From Candidatus Omnitrophota bacterium (lineage in GTDB: Bacteria > Omnitrophota > Gorgyraeia > Tantalellales > Tantalellaceae), in NCBI GenBank assembly GCA_014728045.1, contig WJMH01000012.1, positions 1 to 61,238 on the forward strand: 61,238 nucleotides of DNA, given 5' to 3'. Positions 1 through 24,000 of this stretch are shown here, piece after piece. A program made the position numbers and the translations under genes. Position 1 is the first letter of the stretch; every line of letters starts with the position of its first letter. Under the pieces are notes generated by a model. The model was not told where the DNA came from, did not search any database, and worked only from the letters and a program-made list of their open reading frames with translations.

Positions 1-16
1 GCATTACAGAAGAAGG

Positions 17-3000
17 ATGAGCACGAAGGTGAGAATGGACAGGCCGGGTACTCGTATCCTGGACGAGGAGAAAAGGGAGAGTATCAACGAAAGCCTTTCC
101 TCCGATGAACTTGCCAAAGAGATCGCCGATCAGCTGGGTGTGGAACAATACGGTATGAGGGCGGCCACCCCTGACAAGGTAGTGACAAGGCTTAAGGCAA
201 AGGGCGTCAGGATCAGCGACGACTGGAGGGAGTACACGGACCTCAAGCGCATGGTCCTATCATTCGCTTCCAGAGTATTTTCTGAGATGAGGGTGATCTC
301 CCATTACAAGGTAAATACATATATAAGGAACAACCTTCCCGAGGGGCTTTTGGCCGATACTCTCGAAAAAAGGCAGGAGAACCTCAGAAAGCTGTATCCG
401 GACAAGATCGACAGCAAGGATTACGGAGAAGATTACCAGATAAGCGCAAGGGTCATACCCGTAAAAGGGCTTTACGCGGCAACAGGGATAAAGGCGCAGA
501 TAGGCCTGGGCAGAAGTTACGGGGAACCCGTGATCTATATTGATGAGGATTACTGCGACGATCGGATCCTGGCTCATGAATTCTATGAAATGGGCATGTG
601 GGAAGCCAAACGCCGGGATCTGGCTCTTGAACCGCAGCAGATGAGAGACTGGATCCGGGAGAACATCGACAAGGCACGTTCTCTTAACAATGAATACCAT
701 GATCAGAACCCTTACCCGGTAACGGGGCACGAAGCTCCGTCGGTGAATTTCATTTATGAGGATGCCTCGGACATCCTGATATCGGGTGCCGAAAACAACG
801 CGAAGGTAATAATAGACGAACTGGTCGATCTCAGGGATAAACCCGGCACCATAACGGAAGCCGTTATCGAAGCTGAAATGGCCAGGATAGAAGCGCGCAT
901 GAGGGAACTGAACGTTTCCAAAAATACGGTCGATAAGAACACCTGGGACAAGCTGCAATTCAAAAAGCAGGCCACCGTATACCACCTCAGAAAACGCATC
1001 GGAGCCTCTGCCAGGACCGCGGACGCCGAAGAGAAACCCGAGAAAAAAGCCGAAGCCCCGGCAAGGAAATCAACGGCTCTCACTCCCCAGGCGAAAATCC
1101 AGCAGAAGATCGCCGAAGCTAAAAGCTGCATGGGGCTTTGGAACAGGTTGTGGGGCGCGGCCGATTATGACCGGGCGATAAAGCTCCTTACCGAGGTGCT
1201 GGAGATGGATAAACACAACCAGCAGGCGCGCCAGCTTTTGGCTACAGCCAAAAGCGCGAAAAAAGACGCCGAAGACAAAATAATCAAAAAGATAACCGAC
1301 AGCCTTAACACGGCCGGCACGGCGATCGCCGACGGCAATGTCAAAAAGGGCAGAAAACATCTTAACTCGGCTCTGGACCAGATCTACGCGCTGGGCGGCA
1401 AGAACGAGAGAGGTAAAAGCCTCAAAGAATGGGCGGATGACCTGAGAACGGAGCTCAACAACGAGATAGCCAAACAGAGAGGCAAGGCTCCCAAGAAGAA
1501 AGCCCCGAAAAAGCCAAAGAAGAAAGAGCAGGGGCCCCCTGAAGATATGCAGCTGGGCAAGAAAGCCATCCGCTCGGTTCCAAGGCCGGTCGTAAGCGAA
1601 GGCGTACCGGAAGCTGAAGAAAGTGAAGAAGCATCAGAAGAAGAAACGGGGCCTGAGATAGCAAGACCGGTGCCCCCGGCTCCCAGACCAGAGCCCGAGG
1701 TCCAGGCACCGATACCGCAGGTTACTCCTGTTATAGAACCCGGCAAAACAGCTTTTTCGGAAGAGGTCGAGAAGTTTCTGAACCTGATAGGCCTGAAGGA
1801 AGACTCCGAGGGCTGGGATATAGTGGGTATTGAAGCCCAGAAAGCGGTCGAATCAGGATGCGTCCTTACGGAAATAATGAATTTTTCGCAATGCAAAAAC
1901 ATAGTTTCAAAGGCCACCAAGGCATACAGTACGTTCACCGCTCTTATAGCCCTTTATGAGCCGATCATAAAGAGCGCCGAGAGCGCTCCGGGAACAGATC
2001 TGGCCGGGGTTATCAGCAGTAATCTCGGAATGATAAGCGCCCAGATAGACCAGCTTGAACCGCAGGTCAGGGAACAGGTCCAGAATAGGGCCGAACAGAG
2101 GGCCGAGCCCGCCGATGCCGGTACTTTTGTAGCCGAGATAAAGTATATCAGGACTGATGCCTATTCCCTTATCCTGGAGCCGATAATATCTAAGCTGAAA
2201 GCCCAGAAAAAGGCGGCATCCATACCGCAGGCACAAATATTGACCGATTATTCGTCGATAATGCAGAGGATCAAGGGGCTGGTCGCTCAGAAAGAACATA
2301 TGACCGGCGATGTCCTCGAGGCTGAAATAGCGGCGCTTGAGTCGGATATCGACAGGTTCAACCTCAACGAGGAGACCCTTGAGGGAAGCCGCGATCCGGA
2401 AACGCAGGAACCTTTGTGGGACCGTTTGCAGGCCGCGCTTAGTGAACTCAAGAGCGCGAAAGAAGAACCGGCCGGACAAGAGCCGGTAATAGAGCCTGTC
2501 TTCGAACCAGAAAGCGAGGAAGAGAAAGGCCTGCTTGAAGAGGAGCTGGCGGGCAAGGAGCTTCTGACCCGGGAAGGGTTTCTGGCGCGTTACGGGATTG
2601 AAAAGGACATGAAATTGTACGAATTCGTTTATAACGGTATTGATTCGGACTGGGAGGAACGGCAGAAAGAAAGCCCCGCTCAGCTGGCTGATAAACAACT
2701 TGAGTTCATAGTGCCGGTTGACTCTGCCGAAGAAGCCGGGTATCGCGAGGCTGTCAGCCAGGCGGTTAGCGAGATCGAGGACGGACGGACCGATCTGGCG
2801 ATGCAGTCACTTATACCGGTAATGGGTTTCGAACAGGAGGAGGCAACGCGTGTAAGGCTTATTTTGATATTACTCAGTTACATAGAAAGCATGGAGATCG
2901 AAGAGGCTGGCCAGGCAGAAGAAAAGCCCGCTGAAGAAGCCGCAGAGATCGAGGAAAAGGGCATACTGGAAAAGGCTTATGAAGAAGCGGATGAAGAACC

Positions 3001-6000
3001 GGACCAGGAAAAGGCGCCTGAGGAAAAAGCCGGACCTGAGATAGCCGCGCCTTCTAAAGCGGAAGAAGAAGCCGCTGAAAAAGGCGAGCCAGAGGGTGCA
3101 GAATTCTCACACAGGACGGAAATGTTCATGGACCTTCTGGGGATAGACAGCCACTTAGCCGTATACAATATCATAGCACGTGAAGTGGAGGATGTTATCG
3201 CTTCCGGCAAGAAACCCGCGGACATACTTGACCTGGGACAGGCACGCGAAACTGCCAGGGAAATCAATCTTGAAGCGCAGAAGTTCCAGAGTCAGGTCAG
3301 TTCCGTGAACGCCGAGCTTACCATACTGGAAAGAAGCGGGCTTTCTACCCTCAAGAGCAGGATAAAGGAAAGGCTCAAGTTCGCACTGGGGCAGGTGAAC
3401 CCGAAGACCAGGAAAACAGTTACCGAGAAAATGATGGCGAGGCTGGAAGATGAGTCAGCCAGACCTACCGATACCGGCAGTCTGATAGCGGAACTCTTCC
3501 AGATGAGAGATGACTCGATAGAGCGGCTCGCGCAGCCTGTACTTTCGGCTCTGCGTGAGGGGAAGACGGTCGCCGAGAGGAATGCCGCGAAGATCATGGG
3601 TCTTCTGCAGACGGCAGAAGAGGATATGACGGCCGGCCACTACACCCGCGCCCGCCAGAAGGCTGACAGGGTGCTTGAACTTGATGCCGGTAACGAGAAC
3701 GCCCGGAACATTCTCGCGCGCATTAATCGTATCGAATCGGGTGAACCCGAGGAAGCTGGGAAGGAACAGGCCGATCGAGACCAGGCGAGGTCCGAGACGC
3801 TTATACAGCATAATGAAATAATGGCCGCCGCGGTCCGCCTTATAGGCAGGCTGAGGCATATTGAAATGTATCCTCCCGTAAGCCAGGAGGATATCATACA
3901 GGCCGAGGACGAGATAACCGAATACAGCATGAGCGAAGAGAGCCTCAGGGGCGCTTTGGATTCATTGACCAAGAAGCCTCTCTGGGAGGAGCTTCAGCAG
4001 ATCCTTGATAAGGTAAAGAAGATATACGAAGCCCAGGAAACCCGCCAGAAGAGCAAGGTGGAAGCGACAGCTGAAAAGGGCATAATCGAGATACGCGTGT
4101 GGCTGAAGGACTGGCGCAGGCAGATGGAGCAGATCGATAATGAGAATATCCCCGATGTGGAAAAACTCGAGGATATCATTCGCGTAAAGATGAAGGAGCT
4201 CAATTACAGGAAGAAGGAGCTTGAAGCGCAAATATCCGAAACGGAAAAACAGACCGGCCAGCCTCGCAGAACAACCCCGCAGCAGCTTGAAGAGATGCTT
4301 TACAGGGATTTCGAGTTCTTTGTCAAAGGTGACGGTGAAGTGGCCGGCATCAGACAGATAATCGCCAAGAAAGGCGCCTTCAAGGTCCTTGAGCACATGG
4401 ACAACTGGCATTCAAGGGTTATGAAGTCCGAGGAGTTCGAAAACAAGAGCGTCAAGTACATTGAAGATTTCATAAAAGAACAGCGCGAAGAGATGCACCG
4501 GATAATGAGAAGGTACGGTATTACCGAAGAGATCGTTCCCGAAGACGTTGAAGAACTAACGCGCATGTTCAATTTCTGCGCTATGCAGGCAACGGTCGAG
4601 GCATCCAAGAGAAGGAAACCCCAGCTTACCGAGACCCAGCAGCTCATCGCCCTGGAAGCGCAAAGGGAACACGACACTCGGGAGTTGCACAAAAAATCGC
4701 ACGTTAATATCAAGGCCGCCAGACCCGATCAGAACGACAGGACAAAGGAACTTATCGAGCGCATTAACAAGGGCCAGAGCATGGAAGATATCGCCGATGA
4801 TGCGATCTCGGTGATCGAGCAGGTCATAGCCGAGAACATGGAAGAGGAACCCTCCAGGTTAAAGGAGGAGTTCGCTTCAATGACGCAGCGCATGTACGAG
4901 GAGGCCCGTGCCCTGGAAATAGTTGGTGCGGTTGAGATAGCTTTCAGCAAGATCATGATGTCCGACCAGACCGAAAGGGAGGCCAGGAAGACCATGGTCG
5001 ATGGCTTGAAGCAACTGAGCGTGGTTTTTGATTCTTCGCCGGGTCTCACCAGGAGCGAGGAGTCCAGGATCAATGCCAGCAACGTGCAGAATATGGCTGA
5101 ACGTGTCCTGGAATCCGCTTTCCGTTCCAGGTTCAGGAAATTCACGAATCTTTATGCCAGCCAGAGAAAGGCTGTAAAGGACGTGATCATCAAGGAAACG
5201 ACCTCCAGTGACGGCAGGATCAGGAGCCGGATAGGCCAGATGCCGACATCTTCCGGTAAGACCATAGCCCTTTATACGGCCGCGTATATCATGGCCATAA
5301 GAGCTTTGAGCGAAGAGGGCAGGAGAAACAGAGAGGGTATACTGGTAACTTCCACCGAAGAATCCAAGGCGAAGGAGGACGCCGAAGAAGCGGCCAGAGT
5401 GCTGTCCGAACTCGGCATACAGGTGGGTTTCGTGGGCACCAGAACTGACGGACAGGTACAGGGATATCTCTTTGACAGAGCCACCGGCGATCTGGAGAAG
5501 GTCGAGAACGACAGCAGGGTATATTCCGAGGCGATGGTCGTTTACGGCACTATTGACAAGTTCGTTCACCGTTCACAGAACGAGAAAATGACACAGGACC
5601 CGAATGAGAGACATTTTATCAGCCGGAAATGGCGACTTCGCATGGATGAGGCTGACGTACCTCTTCTATATGACCTTTCAAACCCGTTCATAGTTTCCAG
5701 CACGCAGGGCGATCCAAGGCTTCTGAGGAGGATCGACCAGGTGGTAACAGAGCATATCGTGCTGCGTAAGCTGAGGGAAGAACTGGGTGTCGGCGCGGAG
5801 AGCTTCAACCTTGCGGCCATGCGCGATAAACTGGCCGAGAGAGATCACCACAGGTCCTACGGTGAGCTTACATCCGAAGAGAAAGCCGAGGTGGACGGCA
5901 TTATACGCAGTAATACGGATCTTTACAAGACGAATACCGACAAGAAGGCGGTGATCCTGAACGAAGACGGTTCCTACAGGCTCACGGAAAAGCTCGGTGA

Positions 6001-9000
6001 ACTGGGCATACCCAAGGACAAGATCAAGGCGAATTTAGCCTCTTACTGCGAACTGGCACAGACGGCGATCGCCGCGCACCTTTTTGACGAGAAATACACC
6101 CATTACATGGAAATGCCCGTTCAGGGAAAACAGGAAATAGTAATGCTGGACGAGGGTACCGGCCGCGTCAAGTTCGGAAGGCTTCCGTACCATCTCCAGG
6201 CCGCAATAGAGGCCAAGGAAGAATTCCCCGTCAGGCCGGAAGAGGATACCGACCTCATTTACCAGATAGACGGTATTGTCCGCGAAAAGATCCTTAACCA
6301 TCCGGGGCTTTACGAAAAGAAGGAGAACGAAAGGTTTGTCATGCTGAACTCCCGCGGTCTCGAGGTACTTCAGCAGGCACTGGTCGATTCGGGCAGGAAG
6401 ATCGACGAAGTCAAACAGGACATGTCCAAGTTCGAGGAGCTGGCCGAGAGGGCCCTGGCGGCGTCTCTTTTCTACGTGAAGGACAAGGATTACAGCGTAA
6501 TGAAGGTGAACGGCAAGGACGAGATCATACTGCTGGACGAGGGTACGGGTAAACCCATGTACGGCAGGAGGCTTTCGCATGGCCTTCACGCCGCTATAGA
6601 GGCCAAGGAAGGCCTTGAAGTTCGGCCCGAGGGCGTTGTCGTAGCATGGGGCACCTTGACGGGATTCCTCAAGCAACCTTTCATACATTCTTTCGGCGGT
6701 GTTACCGCGACAAGCGAGAAGGACGCCATGTGGCAGCTTCACCGCCTCAGGACGGTCGACATCCTGCAGCAACTCAGGGAAGAGCTCTCGATAAGGCAGT
6801 TCAATAAACCCTATTTTAACCTCAGCGACGAGGAAAGGTCCCAGATAGACAAGGCCGTGATAGAAAGCCGCAGGGAGGAAAAAGACCCGCAGATATATGC
6901 TACCCGCACGAGAAAGGTAAAGGCGGTCCTCAGGGTAGTTATGAGAGAACACAAGAACGAGCAGAAGAGGCCCATCCTGATAAAGGTCGCCAATGACCTC
7001 GAAGCCAGGGAGATGGCCGCTCTTATAAGGAACGGCCTCAGTGAGAACACCGGTAAAGATCTCCTCGAGGAAATGGCCCGGAAACAGTTCAATAAACATT
7101 ACAAAGACCTCAGCGAGGAAGAGAAGAACAAGATCAATAACATAGAGCTTATGACCGCGGCCACCTACGCGGACATCGACCAGATAAAGAAAAGAGCCGG
7201 TAAAGAAGGCCAGATCACCATAGTCACCAACCTCGGCGGACGCGGTATAGACATAAAACTTACCGCTGAATCCTCCAGGATAGGCGGACTTTTCGGCATA
7301 TCCACGTATTTTGACGAGCTGTCAGCTTCGGACATACAGTTCAGGGGCCGTGTCGGAAGGAACGGACGCCCCGGTGTATGGATGGGGTTCTGGTCTCTTG
7401 AAGACAGGGCTTTCACCAAATATGCGGAAGCTCATCCGGAAGGGGTCAAGGTGCTCAGGGATCTGCTCGATGCTGTGGAAAAGGACGAATCCAGGCCCAG
7501 CAAGCATATAGGGGGTGAACCCATAGTCAAACAGATCGTTGAAGAGATAAGGGAGTCGATCAAGAAAAGACATATCTATGCTAATCGCCAGCACCAGGAA
7601 CTTTCCGAATACATAGGGAAACTGAAGGTTTCTTTCTTCGAGAAACGCGAAGAAGCGGTGGAAATGTTGCGTCAGGTGGTTGACAGGATGCAGGTGGAGA
7701 AGCAGAAACTTGAGGATATCGACCGCAATATAATCGAACACGGGGAAGAGTTCATGGACCTGATCGGGGAACCGGCGCCCTCAAGGGACGCATCAGCTTC
7801 CCAGATAATCGAAAAAGTAATGATAGCCTGCGACGAGGATGAGGAAGTGGGCAGGAATATCACGGATCTGGCCGCCAAGGGGATCACATCCGCCGATCAC
7901 CTGATAAAGATCATGGGTAGAAGGGAGTCCTTGCTCGAGACCATAAGAGAGCTCGAGGTCGAACGCAAGAAGCTCATGTTCCCGATAGTCAAGATGGACG
8001 TCTCCTGGAAGAGATTTCTCGGGAAAGCCGGAAACATACAGAAGGACCTGGACAGGTTCCTGAGGCATTACGGATGGCGCCAGGCTCTCCTGCAGATAGA
8101 CCCGGTCGTTAACCGCGAAGCCATGGTCAAAGAAGCCTATGAATCGGAGTTCGGTGCTCCCCACAAAAGTTTGAGCTTTTTCCGGATCGCCGTTAGGGCG
8201 CTTCTGGCTATGGGAGCCCTTTTTACCACCACAATGTTCGCTCCGAATGTCATCGTCAGCTTTTTCGATATACTGGGATTGCCGGCGACTCCCGGGTATA
8301 TCCTGCTAATAGCTATCGGCGCTCTTATAGCCGTGAACCCGCGGATAGGCCTTTCGGTACTTACGATGACCGCTTTCTGGGCCATATTCAAAAGCCTTTT
8401 CAGGGTAATGGACATACAGTATCTGACGGTCAAGCTTACTTCCGACGCGTTCTCGCTATTATCGAATGATGCTTATCTTATTTTCCTGACCGGCCTGGCC
8501 GGGGTCGTATTTCTGGCGGTCACGATGATGATGCAGAGGAAATTCCTTAAACAGTTCCAGGAAATGGACAAGAGCCTCAGGAATTTTGCCAGGGCCTTCC
8601 ATGAAATAGACGGAGTGAGTTTTACGGGTTCAATGATCAAGTTCGTGTTCCAGCAGGTGCTCAACCTTGTCAATTACATCGCTCCCATGCTGGCGGGGCT
8701 TTGTCTTATAGTGACCGCGGCGTTTCCGCCTTTCATAGAAGGCGCTTTGGTAGTGGCTCCGGTGACCGTGGGTGTGGGCGCGGCAATTGGCGCTCTGGGC
8801 ATGTTGACCACGGGCGTGACCATACTCGTGAACTGGAAAAGGATAAAGGAAAGAGGAGTGCACCGCCCCAGTCTGGCAGAAAGGTATTTTACGGTCATAA
8901 TAGACAGCGTTCTGACGCTTTCCGCAGGTGTTTTCGTTTTCACGATGGCGACGCAGGTCAATCCTTTAACCTATATAGCCGGGCTTGCCGCGGCCGCGCT

Positions 9001-12000
9001 GCTGATGGTGACCGCGAGGAAGGTCATATCCAAGGCTTTCGGCACGCATGCTCTGCACTGGAAGACAATACGCATGGGGATCTATACCGCAATTCCCGTT
9101 ACATTGCTGATGCTCGGCGTTACCAAGGCCGTCGGCATGACATCCGCCCCCCTGACAACTGTCATGACGCTTGCTTCGGTTCCGTTCCTTTTGAGTTTGA
9201 CCGGATACCTCGTAGCTCAATGGTATTCGGCGAAGAGGCTTTCTCAGATAGAGTCCAAGATAACGGGTATTTCAAGGACCAGAAGCCTTGTGGCCACGAT
9301 CTTCGAACAGAATGTTCTTAACGTAAGGCAGTGGGCTCCGGGGCTGGGAGCTGTGGCCACAGTTACGCTTTCGGTATGGGGTCTGTTCAGCAAAAGCAGT
9401 CTTATTTCAGGGGTACCGATAACCGTCGGGGTTGTGCTCGGCCTTTATCTTGTGCTGAGAATAGCAAAGGCGATTTATAAGTACCAGTACGCCAACAGCA
9501 ATATCTCCGAGAAATCCATCAAGAGCCTGAGGCTCGCAAGGGATGTAATATCCCGCAACGAGATGATCCGGCTCAGAAGCAGTATCATCGCTTTCAAGAA
9601 GGAGCGCTTCAACACGGATAACCCGTATCTGCTGGCGATCAACAAATTATGGGATGCCTCGGAAGACAATTCGGTCCTCAGCAGGATAATGAACGAGATC
9701 ACGATACACGGTCCTCCGAGCGGCGGGAAATGGGATATATCTGATCTTAAACGCAGTATAGAGAATATCATATATTTCCGCAATACCGTGAACCTTCACG
9801 GCGAAGTCATGCAGAGGAACGAACATGGTGAACTTGCGGTGAACGCCTACCTGGCGCTTTTCAGCGAATTCAATCTCGTCAGGACATATCTTGATAAAGC
9901 TTATGAATCGGCGCGTGATCCGGAGAACTGGATGAAGGCGCTGAGGTATTCGTTCCTTTTTGCCATAGGTTTTCCGATGCTTACCGGCGGCGCGAAGGCC
10001 GCCCATGTCAAACGCACAGAAGCGGTCTATAAACATGAGCAGCAGCTCGAGGAGCAGAGGACCATGCAGCAGATGCGCCGTAACAGGCTCACGGAGCTGC
10101 AGAACATGGAATCGGAAATAGAGCGCATGCTTAATTTCATGCGCCGCAAGGCCCTGCAGGGTGATGTTGAACAGTTCGAAAAGACCGAGGAAAGATTAAA
10201 AGCAACGCTGGAACTGTACCGGTCCGGCAACGCTGAGCTGCTTACCGAACAGGAGAGAGGGGATATTAAGTCCAAATCCACCAATTATGAACTCCAGGCG
10301 CAAAGGCACAGAGCGCTTCTTGAAAAGGTGCTGGCCCAGAGAGAGGCATTTAAAAACGCGAGGAAGCAGGCCAGGCTCAAGGAGCTTGCCGACAGGATAG
10401 ACCAGATACTTGATAAGATGAACGATGCGGCCGAAGGCGCGGACAAGGATGCTTTCGACAGGTGGGCCGCGGAACTGGAGCATATGCTTGAACGCCTTGC
10501 GGAAAACCCGGATATAGGGAAGGATCACCGCCTCATTCTTGAGAACAGGAGACTTGCCGGGATATCCAGGTCGATACTGCAGGCAAGGTTAGATGCCAGG
10601 GAAAAGGAAGTCAAAAGGCTTGAAGAGTTGCTCAAACAGATAAATGCCGCCATCATAGATGCCCACAAGAACGTTTTCGACGAAAAGGTGAGTGAAATGA
10701 AGAAAGCTCTTGCCGAAACGGAACTTCTTGATGAAAGGACCAAGGACAGGTATTCAAGAAGCATAGTTAACGCAGAAGCTGCCATGAAAAGAAGGCTCGA
10801 CGCTCTTGAGAAGGCCAGGGACGAAAAAGAAAAGGCCCAGGTAACAGAGATAGAGTCGATACTTGCAAAGATGGAAGGATCCGCCAAGGCCGCCGACGTG
10901 GCTCTCTTCAACAAACTGAAACAGACGTTGGAGAAAGCCCTAGATTCGGCTGATATGGTCGATGATGTGTCGAAGACCGGTTACAGGGTAAGAGCCCACG
11001 AGGCTGGGGTGCTTTTGAAGGAAGTAAGGGACGCCATGGCGGCCTATCATGACAGGGTCATCAAGTTCGCCAGGACCGCACCGCAGTATGCTTTGGCCGA
11101 GAACGCAGAGAACACCGAGCAGGCCTGGGAAAAGTTCAGGGCCGACGCGGAGAAGATCAGAAGCGAGGCCCCCGGGGTCTATGACTCCGAACTGGTGGAT
11201 GCTTATTTCAGGCTCGGGGAGATACTCCTCCGGAGCGCCCTGAGCGACAGGGTGGATACAGCCGATGTCATAAAGGTCAGAGAGCTTCTTTCCCGCGCCA
11301 AAAAGAGCACCGAGGAGATCGACAGGATAAAGGAACTCATAGATACAATAGCCGAGGAAAAGACCCTGGATAACAGGCTCTTCATACAGCTTGTATTCGG
11401 GTATTCGCTTGGGGACAGGTTGCCGCGGTTCGCGGTGGGGGACGGTTCGGGCAGTACTTCGAGTGACCTGCCGGTAAGTGTGGATTTCAGCGGCTTCCCG
11501 CAGGTGCCGCTATCCACTGCAGACCGCATCCGCCTGGTCAATTCCTTCGAGTCCCAGCAGGACGCTTTGGGCAGATGGTGGATAATGATAAGCGACAATG
11601 GTACACAGAGCGATACCAGTGACGATATCTGGATAGCCGCCGATACATATAATGACATGATCCAAGATCTCTATCCGCAGATTCAGCAGCTCGCCACCGA
11701 AACAGGACATACTATAGATCCCTCATGGCCGGCTACGGTATTTATCGCCAATGCCGGCAATAACAGCGCTCCCGAATGGCAGAGGAACATACGTGAGTTG
11801 GTTAACTGGCTGATAATAGCCGAACAGGCCGGGATATATGAACATTCCGCCTCCGACATGATGGATAACATCATGGAGAACATGGACGATGTTAACGATT
11901 ACCTACGTGAGTACGGGGACGGGGAACTTACCCTCAGTGACGAGGAAGAACTAGGATTGCTCCTCTGGGTCTCTCAGGGGACGGCTGACGGGCATTCGGT

Positions 12001-15000
12001 TGACGAATTATTGTTCCATCCCAGGGAACTGGCCCGGCTGATGATGAATTTCTCCATATATGACAGTGACCACGGAGCAAGGGCGAAAGCCGTTGCAGCC
12101 GCCAAGAGGAAAGCCGAAAGCATGTGGAAGGCCGCAAGAAGCAGGAACCTTCTCATTACGGTAGAACGTCTCGTGGAGCTTAAGACCTCTCTTGCGGACG
12201 TGGACAGGATGTCCCATGAGATAGCGGAACTGGACGCCCGTATCAAGAAGGCCGGCCGGGAAGAGAAGATCATCCTCCAGCAGAGGAGGCTCCTTCTCGC
12301 CAGGCGCCTTGCGGCGGCCAGGAAGAAGTCGAGAATTGAACAGGTCCGTATCAAATGGGCCCTCGGCATCGATATGAACGCGGACCTTGTAAAACAGATG
12401 AACCTGCGCGAAGTGAGTGAGGCAGAACTTGTAAAAGCCCTTGAGCAGGTTTCGGGCGATTATTACTCCACGCGCCTTGAAGCCGCCAGACAATGGGTGG
12501 TGGAAGCCGGCCATTACGCCCCGTCTTTAGTAAGGGTGAGGGCCTCCAGCGGACTTATGGTCAACCTTCTGAGCGTTTTCGAGGAAAAACCGATAGATGA
12601 TATAGTTTCTCTAAGTCTGCTGGACTTTCAGGTCGATTATGATCATCTCCGCAATAAAGAGGATCAGATCGCGCAGAGGGAGGTCGAAACGGCTATAGCC
12701 GCTTTCCGTGACGAGGTCAGGGATATGGACAGCGAGATAAACAAACTTGCCGCTCATATAGAAGGTCTTGAGGCCGTTATAGAGAAGGACAGGGAGGTGC
12801 TCATAGAAGCCCGCGCGGCATACGATCGCATGATAAAGCTTTCCACTGAACAGCCGGCACTGATCGATCGCACGAGCGCCGTCCACATAGTAAAGAACCT
12901 GCAGCAGGCGGAGGACGCGCTAAGGTGGCACCAGCTGCAGCTGAGGATAGCAAGGGCTAAGTTCAGGATGTTCGGAAGGTTCGCCGAAAAGAAGGTGGCC
13001 GATCAGAGAAGAAGGGAAGCGGAGATAACTGACCTTGGCCAGCTTTTCTCAATGGCCCTGAGGAACGGCAGGATGAACCGCATATGGGCCAGGATAGCCA
13101 AAACCCGCGCTATCAAGGAAAAAGAAGCATCTGACAGCTGGTATATCCCCAAACTCATATTCAGCATGAAGCTTTTCAAGGGTTTCACTGACCTTGAATG
13201 GAGACAGGAACATGCCTCGGATAACGATATATTCGAGGATGCGATAGAGGAAGCCGATATCGGGATGAGCATGCGTGCCTGCCTGAGGTGGTATCTGTTT
13301 GACCTTGGCGGTGAGAACCGTGAACTTGCCACGGAATACGCCCTTAAATCGGCGATGCTGGAATCAAAGACCAAGGGCTCCGAGCTCATGGTAGAAATAG
13401 CCAATGCGGTTTCCCGCATAAAGAGAGCTCAGGAAGCCGTGGATATAAAGACTGAGGATGTCGGGTACAAGAAGCTCAGGATAGAGGCGATGGCCGACTC
13501 CGACGACAGACGTCGCCAGGAGTTCTATCTCATACAGCTGGGCAGAGACCTGGAAGGGGCCAGGAACGAGTTGCGTATGGCTTACGAAAACCTCAGGAAG
13601 GTCGTGGGTGCTACGCGCACCAGGATAAAAATAGACCGAAAGATGCTCGATGAGATGGACAGGCAGCTTGAGGAGTTCATGTCAAGCCATCCGGATATGT
13701 TCATAAGAGGTATTGACGGCAGATGGCAGGTGACTCCTTACGGTAAAAGAAGCATGGGTCAGCTGAAAAGAGAACTGCAGAGATCGCTGGATGAACTGGA
13801 AAGGCTTCACAGAAGGGAGAGGCTTTCCGGGCTCGACCAGATCAAGCTAAGGGCCATGATCGCCAATCTGAGGGAAGCGATCTCGGTGATGGACAAGCAT
13901 TTCCAGACCGGCAAGAGCGTGGAAAAACAGATGCCGGTCATACTCAGGACGCTTCACGGGGCCAGATTGTCATATATAAAGGACCAGACACCCAGGTGCA
14001 GCGCGGATATGGAAAGGCTCGAACAGTTCACCGTGGAACTTAAGAGGATCATCTCCGAGACGAAAGATGCGGCTACCGGCAAAGACGCCGAAAAGCTGCT
14101 CGGTGAGGTGCAGAAGCACCTGGCCAAGGCATATAAACGCGAGATCAACAAGATCTTCAGCAGGGCGCGCAGGTATAACATCCGGACCGAAGAAGAAAAG
14201 ATGCATCTAATCATAAAATATTCCCAGACGATACTCGATATCGATAATACCGACAGCCAGGCTGAGGGGTATCTCAAAAAGGCCCAGGACAGGATCGCCG
14301 AGATCGAAAAGATCTCCAGCCGGGACAGGGTCAAAAATGCTTTAAGGACAATGGAGGAGAGGCTCAAGGACACCCCTGGTTGGTTGACCTCCTATAGGGA
14401 GTATCTCGCTTATGCCGCGGAAGGGCTGAGTTCTTCCATCGAAGCAAGGAAGCTGGCCGAAAAGGCGGGCATGGACCTTGGTAAGACCAATGTGGATACC
14501 GTGGAAGCGCATCTTATCGACGCCATATGGAACATGGTCGCCAGAGTAGGTATTCCCGAAGGATATTATGAGGGCTGGGAGCCGGATGCACATTACGGAA
14601 AGGGCCATATGCCCACTCTTGAAATGGATAAGCCCTACTGCGCCGAATCCCGTGAACCTTCGAAGATCATCGAGCAGGTCTTCTCCGGTTACGAGCTGGA
14701 CGAAGTTATAGAATACAGGAGATTCCTGAAGGACCTCCGGGTCAAACTTAAACGTCTGCAAGGCTCCAACAGTGCCAAGGCAGGCGAACTGGTCAGGCAT
14801 ATCGATGCCTATATCTCGCTCTCGGAAGCCAAGATAAACGCGATGAGAGCAGAAGGCGCGCGGACCAGGACCGAATCGGAGATAAACGATATGATCGAGA
14901 ACCAGATAAGCGGCATGGAAAGCGACCTCTCTAGGAGGTTCGGCCTGTGGATACCACCGTTCCACGAATACCATACAACCCGCGGATGGATCCTGGAGTA

Positions 15001-18000
15001 TCTCAAGGTCTACCACAGGGCACAGAAGATAGAGATGCTCGGCCCGAACAGTAAGCAGCAGGATAAGATCGATGGATACAAGAAAGAGGCGAGAAAGAAA
15101 ATAGGCCAGAGGCTGGACGATCTCACGGTGGAAGACGATATTGAAGACCTCCTCGAGGATATATCGCTTGTACGCGCTCTTATGCGTTACGATATACAGC
15201 CCGGCAAGGCCAGGTTGTTCGAGATGCAGAGCCAGATAGCCCTGATAAAACTTATGAACGCCGAACTGGAGGAGATCCTGGAGGATGCTTCGACCGGAGA
15301 ATATGAAGAAGCCATAAAGAACGCGGATAAGGTCCTTACCGCTTGCGTGAGACCTGTCCAGGGTGGCAATAACACTTACACGCAGCTGAGAGATAAGCTG
15401 GTGGCGAACCAGACGAAGGTGCTTATAGCCTGTATGCAGTATAAGGCCGCCGAGTATAAAAAGATAACAGATGAAATCTCCAAGGCGGACAATGATGACG
15501 CGGAGGATTATCTTGATGAACTTGAAGAGGCCGAAGAAACTCTCCGCGGGCTTTACCGGATCGCCGCTTCCTTTGACGAAGCCGAAGGGATCACGCCGAT
15601 CACCCCCGACGGGAAAAAGGTGATAACCGCGATGACGGCGGCTTTGGCCATGGTCAGAAAAGAGCTTGATGCTGTCAACGGCGTAAGGTCGCTGGCCTTC
15701 CTGAAAAGAAGCGTATATCAGCTTAACCGTACGGTGGATTTCGAAAACGACGTGGATAAACTTACCGGTTACACTCGGACAACTGACCCGACCTGCCCGC
15801 TGAGCTCTACGCACCTGAGGCAGCTCAGGACCACCGAGAACGACCGCGTGAGCACGAGAATGCTCGATCGCATACTGGAATCGACCAGCCAGGCCCTCAA
15901 ACATGATAAGGACAATTTCCAGGCCGTTGAACTGCGCCGCAGCGTGCAGGATAAGTACACCATGGTACTCATGGGGCGGCTGAATGATTTGCAGAGAGAT
16001 ATAAAAAGAAGAATCGACAGGGGAAGATCCGCCACACGCGGCCAGATATCGGACGTAGAGGAAGTTGTGAACAGGATCCTCGATGTTAATTCCGACAGGC
16101 TTATCGGCCTGCTCAAACCCGGCGAGGAGAGCATTAACATGCTCAGGAAGATATCCGACAGGACCGGTGCGACGGTCCTTAGCTTCGAGCATCTGCCCGA
16201 GAGCGTGCAGATGACTGATGACGGGCGCAGGATATTCCAGATGCTTATCGACAGCTGCGAGAAGGCCGGCGGTAAGCATACCCCCCACAGGAAGATGATA
16301 ATAGAACTTATACAGCGCAGGTACCACCAGGAAACAAGAGAAGCTGTTTTCTGGGGAGGACCCTTGATACATGTCGATATAGGGATCAGTTCCAGCGGTA
16401 TGGGGCAGTTCTTCGGGAAAACGGCCACCACGCCCTGGAGCAACCTGGTGAATGTCGGGTTCACTAAGAACGGTCTGTTCTGGGTTACGACCCCGATACG
16501 CAAGATACCGATACTGGGAGATATTCTTGAACACATGCTGGGTCTGAAAGGATACATAGAGCATAGAAAACGGAGCATGGAAATGCACGGTGCCAAGTCC
16601 AAAGAACACCTCCAGCGCGCCGAGATGGAAGCAGTGAACCACTGGGTAGCCCTCTGGGGAGCCGTGAAACAGTACCAGTCAACGGACTCCGCCAGGGAGA
16701 AGTTAGCGGCCGAACTGGATGTGCTCGTTGCCGAAAGGGACCAGAAGAAGGAATATTTCTCTTTCAGGAGGAATTACACCGAACTTATGGATCTGGAAGG
16801 ACGCATAGCCAACAAGAGGCTTGAGCTATCACGCTGTGACGCCGACATGCGAGCTTTAGAGACGCTTCTGTATTCGCTCGGGGTCAATGACCCGAAGGAA
16901 TTCATCGCCGAGGACAGTGAGTACGCTAAAAAAGGTTTCGTGGACTCCAAGCTTGATGAAGTGTTCGATCTGTTCGGGGCGGGTTCCAAGGAAGCAGCAA
17001 GCGAATGGGGAATGAGGATGAAGATAAGGATCGCCCAGGACAAGGTGGCGGCGCGACTTCCCTCGGCAACGGGAGAGACCTCAAGCGTGATGCTCGAAGT
17101 CTCTTACGGCGAAGGCTACGCGGGCGAGGTACGCGACCAGTGGAAAACAAGCGTGCGTTTCGCAAGGGAAGAGACAGTTTCGGGAATAGTAGACGCGATA
17201 GGCGGGTATACGAGAGATTCCCGCAGGCACGCGCTGAAAGCTAAAGAACACGAACAGCAACTTGAGAGGCAAACGATGCTGCGCGAACTGGCCGAGCTCA
17301 ATGCGAGGTACTGGAGAGTCGTGGCCGATTACGAGCAGCTCGCGGAGAAATACAGGGTTGCCGAAAAAGCCTGTGAAGACGGCCGGAAAAGAAGGAAAGC
17401 CGAAGAGATCAGGCCGATGCAGCTCAGGGACCTGCAGGACCAGCGCGATCAGGCGAGGGCGAGGATGGAAAAGGCTCTGGCCGATATCAGGATGCTGGAA
17501 ATGGAGTTCAAGACAAGTTTTGGCAAGGAGATACCGGATGCGAGTTTTCTCAGGAACTTCGGGTCTGTTCTCGCGCCGCTGGCCATAGACAGTATAGTGC
17601 AGAAAGCGAAAGCTGCCTCCAGCGATGTGGATTTCTCAAGGGATGAAAAGGTACGCGCACTTGAGGAATACATCATAAGCAGCCGCCAGCGACAGTCCAG
17701 CGTACTGCATTACCTCTCGAGCATAAAACTGGGTGTATGCTTCCAGGACAGCGATTTCACGGCAAAACCGGTTGACGCGGTAATGCCCACGCTTACTTTC
17801 GTGCTTTACGGTTCCAACTGGGAAGCAAGGCGCGATAAACAGCGCAACGAACATATATACAACATTTACCAGCTCCGCAGGAGGCAGTCCGAACTTCCCG
17901 TGGAATACCGGGTAAGGCTCATAGAACTACAGGCAGCCGCTGAAATGCTGAAACTGGAGTTTGAGAACCTTTCCGGAGCGAGCAAGACCATACAGGAAGA

Positions 18001-21000
18001 ATACGACCAGGTGCTCAACGATTACAGGAGGCGCCGCATTGATTTGGATACGATGAAGGCGCGCCTGGAGAAGATAGACAGGAACGAATATATAGAAAGC
18101 CTCGCCTCATTCCTTTCCGCGTACGAGAAGTTCTCGATGCTGACCAGACAGCTCGGCATGGAGATGCCGCCTCTGACCGAACTGGGGGCCGAGAAGGATG
18201 CCGGAAAAGGCGAAGAGGTCAAAGCCGGGGAAAAGACCGAAGAATCAGGAACCGTACCGTCTGAAATAGAACAAACATATACGGCCGTGAACATACCTTC
18301 CAGGGAGGAGTTCGGCAAGGGCCTTAAGAGGAGGACCGGCTGGAGATGGGGTGATTACTGGGACAGTTACAGCGCAAGGCACGACAACCAGCAGATAGAG
18401 GCCTTTCTCGAGAAATACGGCCTCGAGCCCGCCGAGACCAACAAGGCCGGGTTCTTCGCCTTTCGCGAGGGTCTTATCGAGCTGAGCTCCAGGAGAGGAC
18501 ACCTGTTCGGCAGGGGAGGGACGCTTTACCGGTATCTGGTTGACCAGAAGAAGATGTCCGAGGAAGACGCTCTCAGGAAGCTCGCCTCGCTCAGGGATAT
18601 ATACTGGTCCAGGTTCTGGCAGGTCCAGGACCAGATCGTCAAACCTTTCCTCGAGAAAAAACTCGGGTACGAGCCCGACACGGATAACGATTTCGCCATA
18701 CTGATGGCATGGACCGATTACGCGATGGGTGCCGGCAGGGATGAAGGCGCCATGATAGAATATCTGGAGACAGAGCTTAGCGATGACAACCTAGTTACCA
18801 AGATACTCAAGAACTTCTTCCGCGTTCAGATGATGCAGGCGCTGGAGAACGATTATGACAGGGTCCTTGACAGGGTGAGAGAGGCTTCCTTCCATATGAC
18901 GGCCGACCAGCTTCAGGGTGAGGTCGAGACGCGCGGCGTGGATATCGATTCTTTCAGGGGACTTATGGCCGGTTTCGAAAAAGAGGTCGGAGAGTTCCTT
19001 GGGGAGGAAATAGATTATAACAACGAAGCCGACAGGTGGATACTGCATCGCGTGGCCATACTCGCATTAAGAGCAGGCGGCAGGGACGATTTCCGCGGGG
19101 ACCTCGCACTTATGAACATGGTCAAGAAGGTATCCGGTGAATTTTTCAATTTCGACAAGATCACCGCCGAGTCAGCCATGAGGATGCCCGGTTCGGACAC
19201 GCTGAGAAGGATATCCGACAGGATACACGAACTTAAGGCAGCCGGGGAGGATACTACGGCCCTGGAAGTTGTCTTCAACGTGCACATGAAGGCCTTGATC
19301 AGGGGCAAGAAGATCAATACCTGCTATGATACTGTCAGATGGATCAGGCGTGAAACGGACAATACCGCCATGTGGCTCCGAGAAAGGGATCTCACTCTGG
19401 CCGATGCGATAAAGAAAAAGAAAACGGACCAGGATTTTTATGTTCCGATGCTCGTCGTCTACATAAATCAGGCCACCTCTGATCGCGACCCCATGATAAC
19501 GAGCGTAGAGGACCTCCTCAAGGAGGAGAACAGACCAGTTCTTGAAAGGGTCATGAGGCTTTATTACGGGGACCTCAATTTCATACTTACCAGATTCAGG
19601 ACGGACGCCGAGAACGAGAAAAAGGCGATACAGGCCTCGCTGGCCGGGGACCTTTCCGACGCGCAGAGGACTAAGCTCGAAAAAAGGCTCAAAGAGCTCG
19701 AGGATTACCTTTCGACCTATGATACCAATAATCCCTTCCTCGTCGAAGCCTCGAAGAAATGGGTCAGGTTCTACCGAGAGAACTTCAAGGATTCGGCCGG
19801 GTTCAATAACTTCCTGGACAAACAGTATAAACCGCTGATGGCCCAGGAAAGCGTGAAGAAATTCCTGAGCGACGTCGCCGGGGTCAAAGAGGTCGACCGC
19901 TTGATGAGCGAGGATATGATGATATACGGCGGGTACCTGGCGATCATTCTCGAGAAACACAAGATAGATGCCAATGACGAAAAGGCCGTCATAAACTTTT
20001 GCGACCTCGCGCTCCATTTCTTTCAAAAGAACAGTTCCCTGAGGGAGTTCAAGATCGGCGAAGGTAAAGAGCAGATCAAGTATTTCATAGGCTTAGGCGA
20101 ACTTATGGGTACACTGGATTCGGTCGCCCGCAGGTCCAACAGGTCGCTTACCGACATACTCAAGGACGATGACCTTAAGGTGAAAATAACGGAACTGCTC
20201 AGCAAATACAGGTTCGAATACGTTGACTTCCCCAGACAGATAGCGCTGACCGAGGGGCTGATCAAGGGCAGTGTCCCGGAAGGCAAGGTCGTAATGGTCA
20301 CAGCGCCTATCGTGGACGGTAACTTCAAAAAGATAGGCGAATCCATCTCCGTAAAGGACAGGGACAACAAGAACCTGGTCACTTTCGCCAGGGTAAAGGA
20401 ACATGATAACCTGCCCGATGATTATGCGAAAAGCGTGCAGAGAAGGGAAGTGCTGGTATACCGCAGGGACGCGGTATATCCGCAAGAGATGTTCCGCCTG
20501 GTCAAGGATACCGATATTTTCACTCTGGAAAGCCTGGTGGGCGCGGTAAAGATAGGCACCATAAGCACAGAGGCCGTCAGGGATGAGGACGGGACCGTGG
20601 TGGATACCCTTCTGGTGAAGAAGTATCTTGCCGGTTATACGGACGGACTGGGCAACAGCGTTGTCAAGATCAACAAGAAGGGATACGGTAGGACGATCTA
20701 TGAAGAGAAGATAAAAGGGGAAAAGGTCCAGAAGATACACTACCAGTACCACGATAACGGTAGCCTCAAGAGCGTGGAGTATGAGAACGTGCTTAACGCC
20801 CCTGACCCGTACAGGGATCCCCAGGGGTATTTTCTCGCTGAACAGCACGGCCTGATCAAGCGCATCGAGTATGCCCCCTCGGATGACATATTCGTGCCGG
20901 GCCTTCTTGAGAAGATAATTTATGATGACGGGACAGTGGCTTATTACACTGACGGACATATTAAAAGGATCACTTTCAGTGAGCCCCACCGGCCTGATAA

Positions 21001-24000
21001 AAAGACGTATCCGCTGGATTATGATTTCGCGGCCCAGCACGGTCTTGTCGCGGAAATGGTCTTTGACGGAACCTCCGAAAACAGGTCCGTCCTGACCCGG
21101 TATGCCGACGGTACCGAAAGAAGGTATATTACCGCGGAGAACCTTGATGAGGCCAGGGAAGAGCGTCGGCAGAGCGTACGGGAAGATGATATGGACAACA
21201 TCAGACCCGGCAACCTCGGCGAGATAAACGTAGGCAAGAATGCGCATATCTTCAAAGGCCCCGGAGATGTAAGAGAGAAGGCTGCTGAGATGCGCAAAGC
21301 GGATTTCAAAAAGTATCTGGTCAGAACCATCGGGGACGAAGGCAGATCATACTGGACGGCGATAAACGCGTTGATGGACAAGATAGAATCCGATCTGGAC
21401 GAGGATTCCTATACTGAAGAAAAGAGGCAAAAGACCGAAGATGCGATCGCCTCACTTGAGGATATTAACCAGGTGCTGGACGATCCGCTTCTTGAGGATT
21501 ACCTTGACGTTCTGAGGGATTTCCACTTTGCCAAGCTGCACGGCGGAGTAAAACGCGTTGTCTATGAAGCAACACAGGAAAAAGTATCTCGTCCGCTGGT
21601 CATTGAATACACCGATGGGACCAGGGCCGCTTTCGTTTACAAGGTCGACGCTGAAGAACTTACGGGTATAGAGAGAAATATATTCTCAAAAGAGAAGAAC
21701 TGTTACCTTAAGATCCTTACCGAAAAAGGCAAGGCCCCGGTAAGGTATATCTACATCAGCAAGAGCAGGATCGCCCTCAAAGACGATTGTCTCAAGTATG
21801 TCGGGTATGAGACGCCCCTCATTGACAGTCGTTTCAGCAGGCTTCACGGCGGCGTGTCCGCGATTATCTATACCGGTGAAAGCAAAAAAGGCGGAAGGAT
21901 ACTCCTCAAACATTATGCCGACGGCAGCTACGAGGAATACAATTACGAGCACAAGATGTTCGGCGCTTATACCAAGACCCTCTATGAAAGGTCAGCGAGC
22001 ACTATCCGAAAGAAGGTCTTCACTTATGACGCCAAGGACAGGCTTATAGAATTCACCGACCACAATGGGATCACGGACAGGTATTATTACGAGCCAGGTT
22101 TTATCTTCGCCAATCGCGGCCAGAGCGGGAACACTCTGGCGATAGAGGTCGATATAGCGGGCGTGCCCGTAAAGAACGGAGCCGTTCTGGTCTTTAAGAA
22201 CGCTAAGATTACAAGCAGAAAGGAACTTGCCGAAGCAGGTGAGGCTGATTTCGCCTTTTTCTTCAACAAGGAGATAGAAAAGCTCGCCGCCACCGGGCAG
22301 CTGAACAGGATACTCAGTGACCCTGATATGGCTTATGACGCAAGCATCTGGAATAAGACCCGTGACGGTTCGGCTCTTCTGGAAAGGACCGTATGGGAAG
22401 AGGACGTTATAGGGACTTTCGCCACTCTCATGTCCGAGTCAAGGTTCAACGATACCTTTGAGCGCATGGTAGGCATATGGGAAGCTTCCATGCTGAGGGA
22501 CGGGGCGAGGACGCTCCAGTACAAGGCTGGTCATCAGAAGATCGATACGCATAAGCTTTACGCCGACAGGATATACGCCGAACTGAAGGAATTGAAGTCG
22601 CAGATCGAACAGGTCCGCAGCGGAGAGAAGGAAATGGACCATTTCCAGATGGAAACCTGGCAGAGGCTGATAGCGATGAAGTTCAGGGCCTGGGAAAGAC
22701 TGGCATACAGGGAACTGGTGGTCGAGGAAAGAAGCCCTGAAAAATGGATGAACAGGCGAACGGGCGCCAGCTGGTTCAGGAACGTCGTTCTCTCTTTCAG
22801 CAGGCGCAACGACCTGGATATTCTTTTCAAGGAAGTCACCGGCGTATCCGCGGAGAACATCACACCCGTTGAAAAAGTCTCCGTGAGAGGAAAGCTGCCG
22901 GTGGCTGAAGAGATCAATACGAACCGGGAGATCACCCTTGCTCTTACCAGCGAGGAAAAGACCGTTGTCGTGGATACCGGAGCGATGGGAATGAAGGACC
23001 TTTCCGATTCGACTTTATCTTTCCTCGTTAATACCAAGGAATCGTTGTGGCCTGCCATAACCATATACGCTGTTGACGGGGAAGGCCGGGAGAAGGTCCT
23101 GAGAGTCCCCGCCGAATCGGTCAAATACGAAGAGTACAGGAAATACCAGAGGGTTGAGTTCACTCCCTCCTCGAGGGATCTGAGTAATTATACCGAAGAA
23201 GAGGATTTCGACACTTCGGACGTTGTTTCGGTAAGGATCGTTTTCAGGAATACCAGCACAACTCCCGCTAATCTGGGGGTCAGGGACATCATGCTCGAGC
23301 GTAGCACTTCTCTGGCCGATACGGTCAAGGTGACCGAAACCGTGACCGTTGCTGAAGATCAGTGGATGTCCGCTTATGACATGGACGGCAGTATGTACAT
23401 CGATCTCAGCCGGGAAGGCGTGCCGAGTGATCTGGAAGGCAGGTTAATCAGGGTACGCGCAAAACTGCCCGCCACTGTCGCAGGGCCGGGCAGCAGAGTT
23501 ACCGTTTCTCTGATCGACGAGCAGACCAGGGCAAAGAGCGAAAAAGCGACAGTCGATGATGAAGGTTATGTTACCGTAGAGATAGAAGCCCTTTCCAAAG
23601 CCGATTTCGATTCCACTAAAATACTTATGCTCAGGGTGGAATCACCTATAGCCGAACAGGGCATGGAATTCACCGTCTGGCACAAGATAGCCGCAGCGTC
23701 GTTCGCGCTGGCCATAGCGTTGGCTTATTATTTGAAAAGGAACCACGCCAAGCTGGTCGAATGGCTGCGTAACCGTAAGATAAAGGGCCTCGGTAAGACC
23801 GTCGTAAGTCATGCGGACCTCAATAAATACATCAGCGAGAACATGCCGGAAGAGATCCGGAACGCAAAGAACATCTACGAGAGAAGGGAACAGCTCAAAA
23901 AGCTTTGCCCGGAACCATTTACAAGTGAGGATTATCCAGACATGGAGGCCGGTCTTGTGGAGATCCCCGGCCTTTATAACCAGACGGGCGTAAAGGCGCA

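Follow-up and report, generated by a model that had tools for sequence, protein, structure and literature searches.

How bacteria with tiny genomes insert and export proteins of 10,000 to more than 100,000 residues is an open question, as is the location of the sites at which such proteins are cut. A concrete case is provided by a 61,238-nucleotide stretch of Candidatus Omnitrophota DNA (positions 1 to 61,238 of contig WJMH01000012.1, GenBank assembly GCA_014728045.1), which was analyzed at its full length and is called the window below. Its plus strand, on which all of the features described here lie, carries three tandem giant open reading frames (ORFs). Deep within the first of these, ORF A (17..34420, 11,467 aa), residues 3306-3328 form a hydrophobic segment (MKALRYSFLFAIGFPMLTGGAKA, 9932..10000) that resembles the signal peptide of a Sec substrate and is preceded by a sequence resembling a ribosome-binding site. 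What is the role of a segment of this shape at residue 3306 of a protein? A first-pass annotation of this DNA had proposed internal translation initiation, a gene boundary left behind by a fusion or an internal signal peptidase I site. The explanation we favor, although we consider the case for it evenly balanced, is that M3306-A3328 is part of one continuous polypeptide in which it would serve as a 13th membrane segment and as an internal, signal-shaped start-transfer sequence.

Two reports on the giant proteins of this phylum bear on the question. In those parts of the account of West-Roberts et al. that are drawn on here, SecA DEAD and preprotein cross-linking (PPXD) domains located beside transmembrane (TM) regions are described as a hallmark of Omnitrophota giants, self-export of these proteins is proposed and their cleavage points are called unknown (West-Roberts et al. 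2023, 10.1101/2023.11.21.568195). A 2026 survey of Omnitrophota suppressed internal signal-peptide calls as chunking artefacts (10.64898/2026.06.07.730766).

A segment with the form of a Sec signal at residue 3306 of ORF A

The 23-residue segment, which is followed by AHVKR, is composed of an n-region MKALR (charge +2), a 12-residue h-region YSFLFAIGFPML and a c-region TGGAKA|A with Ala at positions -3, -1 and +1 and Gly-Gly breakers at -5 and -4. The n-, h- and c-regions of a Sec signal, including the small residues at -3 and -1, are therefore all present, and to this extent the first-pass description of a canonical Sec signal with an AxA site was accurate. The description fails on location, as the segment begins at residue 3306 of an uninterrupted ORF, and on the early mature region, where Lys and Arg should be absent from about +1 to +5 but AHVKR places K at +4 and R at +5. 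It is established from work on E. coli that basic residues early past a signal hinder Sec export. Basic residues at +4 and +5 are also found in the ortholog L001 (AYVKR), and a second homologue, P0002, has R at +5. Across the first 18 residues after the candidate cleavage site the net charge is about -1. The N-terminus of ORF A itself is without a signal peptide.

When A was scanned by a TopPred-type procedure on the Goldman-Engelman-Steitz (GES) scale, the segment scored 1.37 against a cutoff of 1.0 for a 'certain' TM helix, whereas scores did not exceed 0.79 across either the 2,700 cytoplasmic N-terminal residues or the 4,546 residues past the segment. The hydrophobicity is uniform, with a hydrophobic moment of only 0.1-0.2, and an amphipathic in-plane helix was rejected on that basis. 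In an AlphaFold2 model of residues 3101-3500, of use only for its confidence values, the segment had a predicted local distance difference test score (pLDDT) of 33-46, the same as that of the TM helices, and was unpacked against the neighboring domain.

Note that the shape of the segment is not significant by itself in so long a protein. Our signal-motif heuristic, which is crude and of our own making, ranked the segment first among 575 Met positions. Upon shuffling the composition of the 8,471 soluble residues, however, a Met-started signal-like motif with AxA arose in 11% of the shuffles and any such motif in 48%. What places the segment above chance is that each of the four homologues (the window protein counted) retains its hydrophobic peak and that its topological parity matches that of a second isolated segment at residues 7887-7907.

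Conservation of the segment among homologues

Three matches, P0001, P0002 and P0003, were obtained when 1.84 billion representatives were searched exhaustively with HMMER. Metagenome and viral scans gave no further relatives, and homologue searches with 191-aa and 720-aa queries gave no match. The only close relative of A (63-65% identity) comes from Candidatus Omnitrophota metagenome-assembled genomes (MAGs). P0001, a partial protein of 5,115 aa from an Omnitrophota MAG, is a single ORF collinear with residues 400-5551 of A at 65% identity, and conservation in the alignment is even, without a break at the site. P0003, also partial (1,588 aa), is likewise a single ORF through the site. P0002 is a 163-aa gene call (JGI sample 3300042731) that starts at the Met homologous to M3306. 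Located at positions 9..500 of a contig of 1,678 nt, it comes to a stop at a point beyond which the window protein goes on, and the next gene begins 52 nt later.

The hydrophobic peak is present throughout this set, with GES scores of 1.37, 1.36, 0.91 and 1.74 in the four proteins. Half of the segment positions (14 of 28) are invariant against a homologue of 33% overall identity, the Met is retained in three of the four homologues (in P0003 it is replaced by Leu) and AKA|A is identical in the ortholog. Conservation is not confined to the segment, as ARDPENW just upstream is conserved as strongly in the ortholog. In P0003, the most distant homologue, the counterpart is an uncharged TM segment of 25 residues, flanked on its N-side by basic and on its C-side by very acidic sequence. 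In the 1,340 residues beyond it, which are acidic and Tyr-rich, no other TM helix was called certain. The upstream module is shared, whereas the cargo past the segment is coiled coil in the window protein and beta-rich in P0003. Pfam and PDB sequence searches with P0003 gave nothing significant. An impression of a GH5-like barrel at its end (a GWVLGNE motif) had no Pfam or PDB support and was not used as evidence.

Topological parity of two isolated hydrophobic segments

Upstream of the segment are 12 predicted TM helices (8198..9457, residues 2728-3147) that form a series of hairpins. The even-numbered loops of this series are rich in K/R, and from them the C-terminal end of the block is predicted to be on the cytoplasmic side. 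Given these loops and the cytoplasmic SecA-like ATPase encoded further upstream (5213..7270, residues ~1733-2418), residues 3148-3305 are assigned to the cytoplasm. They comprise a helical domain of ~160 aa, predicted to be cytoplasmic (9458..9931), with a K/R-rich start. After the segment no strong hydrophobic peak is encountered for 4,558 aa (10001..23674, residues 3329-7886), the maximum GES score over residues 3335-7880 being 0.79, and the claim that no TM helix occurs until about position 23680 was borne out. At that point there is an isolated hydrophobic segment (VWHKIAAASFALAIALAYYLK, 23675..23737, residues 7887-7907) with a GES score of 1.18, the only other isolated peak in A. In its 20-residue flanks there are seven K/R and one D/E on the C-side against two K/R and three D/E on the N-side, as expected of a stop-transfer helix running from out to in. 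Judged by the charge pattern of the TM cluster that comes next, residues 7908-8939 are in the cytoplasm.

With residues 3148-3305 and 7908-8939 both inside, the two isolated segments must either both be TM or neither be TM. If both are, then residues 3329-7886 form an exported loop of 4,558 aa, and residues 7887-7907 supply the partner stop-transfer that restores the topology. In the scheme that we favor the 12-TM block would insert first and the segment would then enter the translocon in an N-in/C-out orientation. It would thereby set off passage of residues 3329-7886 through the cytoplasmic membrane, a passage that would end at the stop-transfer helix of residues 7887-7907. The tethered SecA-like motor would be a plausible driver of so long a translocation, which would agree with the self-export proposed by West-Roberts et al. 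(2023), although we only infer a role of the motor in cis in export of the loop.

The earlier view that everything downstream is extracytoplasmic, and that the segment acts as an internal signal, thus stands in part. Hydrophobicity, conservation and parity support both claims. Caution is urged on the signal by the K/R residues at +4 and +5 and by the huge upstream 'n-region'.

Evidence against export of the loop

A number of observations weigh against the topology given above. The uncharged core of the segment is only 16 residues long and contains Pro and Gly-Gly breakers, and on the Kyte-Doolittle scale with a 19-residue window the segment scores 1.22, below the threshold of 1.6. The TM calls come from our re-implementation of a TopPred-type GES scan rather than from DeepTMHMM or SignalP. 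Neither of the 20-residue flanks carries a net charge, and the immediate C-flank is basic (KAAHVKR). With regard to the positive-inside rule for an N-in/C-out segment, the flanks in the window protein are neutral or basic on both sides, whereas those in P0003 are clearly basic on the N-side and acidic on the C-side. Conservation of the G-x-P-x-L-x-G-G-A pattern exceeds what a generic signal needs, and only three homologues are known. In the loop, residues 3329-6700 contain 15-19% K/R and 16-19% D/E, like the 2,700 cytoplasmic residues at the N-terminus. Within residues 3329-7886, relaxed Pfam and NCBIfam searches and PDB sequence searches brought no domain of known extracytoplasmic location to significance, and single-sequence AlphaFold2 modeling of residues 6770-7960 gave a pLDDT of 36.

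Much of this would be accounted for if the segment did not span the membrane, but dipped into it as a hairpin or formed a hydrophobic linker, either buried or flexible. Residues 7887-7907 would then likewise not be TM, and residues 3148-8939 would be cytoplasmic and tethered via the TM blocks, making most of A a membrane-tethered cytoplasmic scaffold. The short core with its central Pro and Gly-Gly, the sub-threshold Kyte-Doolittle score, the basic residues flanking both sides and the unchanged composition downstream all fit this explanation, and the conserved G-x-P-x-L-x-G-G-A pattern suggests a specific structure. Parity allows 'neither' as well as 'both'. Moreover, 46% of long Omnitrophota proteins were found to be 'TM-only' with their bulk predicted to be cytoplasmic (10.64898/2026.06.07.730766). 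Against it, both isolated peaks exceed the 'certain' GES cutoff and are distinct from the ~8,300 soluble residues of A around them, the flank charges of residues 7887-7907 give a clear out-to-in signature, the P0003 counterpart is an unambiguous TM segment with an acidic C-flank and the segment is not amphipathic. We regard a non-spanning element, the main rival of the favored explanation, as possible, though somewhat unlikely.

Possible cleavage at AKA|AH

Returning to the start-transfer explanation, a segment with a 16-residue core, Pro and Gly-Gly breakers and an A-K-A|A end would offer this site to signal peptidase I. A cut at AKA|AH is a sub-case of the favored explanation, in which residues 1-3328 would be split from the remainder, itself anchored by residues 7887-7907 and the later TM helices. 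Judged from sequence features, such cleavage is plausible but rather unlikely. The segment has the canonical 23-residue form, its core is too short to be a comfortable stable anchor, AKA|A is the same in the ortholog and P0002 (GGA|Q) and P0003 offer small residues as well. A cut here would also provide one of the cleavage points that the West-Roberts account, in the parts drawn on above, lists as unknown. However, long N-terminal extensions suppress cutting of internal signal-anchors in model systems (PMC8277137), the aligned -3 residue in P0002 is Gln, K and R occupy +4 and +5 and the segment is more conserved than are typical cleaved signals.

A possible former gene boundary

The segment could instead be the former N-terminal signal peptide of a separate exported protein that became fused behind a SecA-TM gene, a history compatible with a present function as an internal signal. 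In its favor, the full anatomy of an N-terminal signal is kept, Met and basic n-region included, and the downstream cargo differs wholly between homologues that have the upstream module in common. The P0002 gene call, in starting at the Met, ending after 163 aa and having its next gene 52 nt on, hints at a differently partitioned locus. That start is ambiguous as a real boundary because only 8 nt separate it from the contig edge. The fossil boundary proposed in the first-pass annotation was not supported by the two long homologues, each of which runs across the site as one ORF, in one case with Leu in place of Met; no split was found in the homologues having readable upstream DNA. Conservation is even across the site, with ARDPENW as conserved as the segment, and with a GC content of 0.50 there is no compositional relic of a boundary. 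A fused-in signal peptide is therefore an unlikely origin.

The apparent ribosome-binding site

The sequence features from which internal initiation had been proposed are as claimed. A Shine-Dalgarno (SD)-like GGAGAA is found at 9922..9927, its GGAGA lies 5 nt upstream of an ATG (9932-9934, M3306) in frame with the 17..34420 ORF, and the encoded peptide is MKALRYSFLFAIGFPMLTGGAKA followed by AHVKR. The same GGAGAA-N4-ATG geometry is present at the start of the third ORF (54421, behind GGAGAAgaccATG). The pattern itself is within chance: it occurs three times against 0.97 expected, and at least three occurrences were obtained in 11 of 100 shuffles. An SD-like 4-mer at 4-10 nt precedes 62 of the 574 in-frame ATGs of the three ORFs (10.8%). 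The earlier caveat that GGAG arises easily from Pro-Glu codons was well placed, as GGAGAA is contained in the Pro-Glu-Asn codons CCG GAG AAC. In the one ortholog with DNA (contig JBAROK010000007.1, 63% identity) the peptide DPENWM is kept, but the Pro codon is CCA rather than CCG, and owing to this synonymous change the first G is lost and the motif becomes AGAGAA. The SD is thus lost at a synonymous site, and neither long homologue is split.

Local RNA structure is likewise unlike that of a start site. The 63-nt window around ATG 9932 has a predicted folding energy of -21.5 kcal/mol against a mean of -14.0 (z=-2.0), and structure this strong is reached in only ~5% of the 572 in-frame ATG windows. 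Real starts gave -4.4 and -8.3 kcal/mol. Accessibility of the SD is at the 22nd percentile of in-frame ATGs, and the predicted hairpin AUCCGG/CUGGAU takes up both elements in base pairs, the SD through its GG and the AUG through its AU. The ortholog keeps only the inner 6-bp stem of this hairpin and its overall fold is unremarkable. The hairpin extends over 9908-9944 and is centered on the palindromic GATCCGGAGAACTGGATG, which corresponds to Asp-Pro...Trp-Met codons.

The site around 9932 showed neither an excess of promoter-like sequences nor an AT-rich tract, and its GC content is 0.50 compared with 0.43 and 0.28 in two real spacers. An internal promoter or a spacer relic was rejected on these grounds. 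The GGAGAA is probably incidental rather than a functional RBS, its likeness to one being a by-product of the conserved peptide D-P-E-N-W-M. Initiation at ATG 9932, which would yield a nested product of 8,162 aa headed by a signal peptide and for which the spacing shared with the start at 54421, the Met retained in most homologues and the P0002 gene call could be cited, is very improbable given the frequency of such motifs, the unconserved SD, the structured ATG whose inner stem is kept in the ortholog, the lack of promoter excess or AT-rich tract, the Leu of P0003 and the proximity of the P0002 start to its contig edge.

The SecA-like motor and the domain preceding the segment

The SecA-like ATPase gave Pfam matches to SecA_PP_bind (1.6e-18, in two stretches) and P-loop_SecA (4.9e-13) and a weak match to DEAD. 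Its motor motifs are all intact (Walker A MPTSSGKT, DEAD and TNLGGRGIDI), and two tandem PPXD copies, LDEGTG...AIEAKE, are located at residues 2044 and 2173. The SecA scaffold/wing domain was not found in A by Pfam (PF07516 unmatched). A query consisting of the SecA domain of A matched ordinary SecA proteins (E=5.6e-20), and the homologue search with this query returned no giants. A PDB sequence search of the 12-TM block gave nothing significant.

The ~160-aa domain between the 12-TM block and the segment contains DNPY and H(G/A)PPxGGKW motifs that are conserved both in the ortholog and in the 23-31% identical P0003. Its pLDDT was 72-82 in the model of residues 3101-3500. It has no Pfam, PDB or Foldseek match, Foldseek with that model giving coiled-coil noise, and the domain plus segment has no paralogous copy elsewhere in the three giant ORFs. 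The domain and the segment may be functionally linked. One could go further and propose that the motor with its two PPXD copies, the 12-TM block, the ~160-aa domain and the segment constitute a cis-acting cassette for auto-translocation, in which the motor would recognize its own signal and drive a cargo of several thousand residues, signal peptidase I would cut AKA|A and the cargo would be modular across lineages, as between P0003 and the window protein. We put this forward as a speculative extension that is improbable in its entirety.

Comparison with known systems

A bacterial system close in layout is the cytochrome b/c1 precursor FbcH of Bradyrhizobium japonicum, the cleavage of which was reportedly demonstrated experimentally by Thony-Meyer et al. 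in 1991 and the exported part of which is said to be a cytochrome of ~30 kDa. In both proteins a polytopic membrane domain is followed, within one ORF, by an internal signal-peptide-like segment that exports (in A, would export) the downstream part. The candidate exported part of A differs in being ~4,560 aa long and re-anchored by a stop-transfer helix, and its cleavage is only putative. Flavivirus and pestivirus polyproteins also use short hydrophobic segments with small -3 and -1 residues, by which the module that follows is sent into the lumen and cut off. These are, however, viral proteins processed by host signal peptidase in the eukaryotic endoplasmic reticulum, and they have no homology to A. 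An uncleaved type II signal-anchor of a polytopic bacterial membrane protein similarly is an N-in/C-out segment past a cytoplasmic loop and is paired with a later stop-transfer helix, but typically such an anchor has ~19-23 apolar residues and is acidic or neutral on its trans side, whereas the segment of A has 16, with breakers and a basic trans flank.

A has the architecture of a SecA-bearing Omnitrophota giant. Like the 'Archaeovorin-type' proteins, whose SecA domains are divergent, it exceeds 10,000 aa, carries SecA DEAD-like and preprotein-binding domains without scaffold/wing, and has adjoining TM helices and many TM clusters. The specific signal-like segment past the SecA-TM module is a point of difference, being undescribed in the parts of the 2023 account drawn on here. 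Both internal signal sequences and SecA-bearing Omnitrophota giants are already known, and our finding is a variant of the two. It is of value in that a conserved signal-shaped segment with a candidate stop-transfer 4,560 residues further on provides a concrete topology and a candidate processing site for one giant, and a motif to seek in other SecA-bearing giants.

Other features of the window

The first ~3,000 residues of the candidate exported loop are a long charged coiled coil. The first-pass annotation called this part of A TolC-bearing, a label that Pfam does not support: the sole match to OEP (PF02321; residues ~5733-5834) scored 12.2 bits where the cutoff is 22 (E=0.15), searches of NCBIfam and of PDB sequences gave no match, and A shares with TolC only long alpha-helical, coiled-coil-like sequence. 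Membership of the TolC/OEP family was therefore rejected. YD/RHS-like repeats such as FTYDAKDRLIEFTDHNGITDRYYYE and KHYADGSYEEYNYE occur at 20350-22200 (residues ~6780-7400), where Pfam RHS_repeat reached only E=0.089, and a beta-rich stretch lies between these repeats and the TM segment at 7887. An Rfam scan of the window found no RNA family.

The second giant ORF (34756..54225, 6,489 aa) has a GTG start. It contains two similar TM modules (residues ~2390-2745 and ~4235-4340) with APW(V/L)EE...F(F/M)LHE...LH(A/L)(A/T)AN motifs, which by their sequence recall intramembrane proteases of the CPBP/CAAX type; residues 1-5000 had no Pfam match at E<=0.01. The third ORF starts at 54421 and remains open past the window end. 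As in the 'Archaeovorin-type' class, these neighboring giants carry PPDK and PGM/PMM domains: the end of the second ORF matched PPDK_N (3.8e-12) and PEP-utilizer (4.5e-09) within 49156-54222, and the third ORF has a full PGM/PMM I-IV set (3.9e-19 to 1.1e-07) within 54421-61236. Sugar and phosphoenolpyruvate enzymes are thus embedded in giant membrane proteins here, as reported for the 'Archaeovorin' type. The N-termini of the second and third ORFs are each signal- or anchor-like, and their first ~520 aa are paralogous (34756-36300 and 54421-55990; 32% identity, E=1e-75). Paralogy also links the last ~390 aa of A to those of the second ORF (33260-34417 and 53125-54222; 23% identity, E=5e-13).

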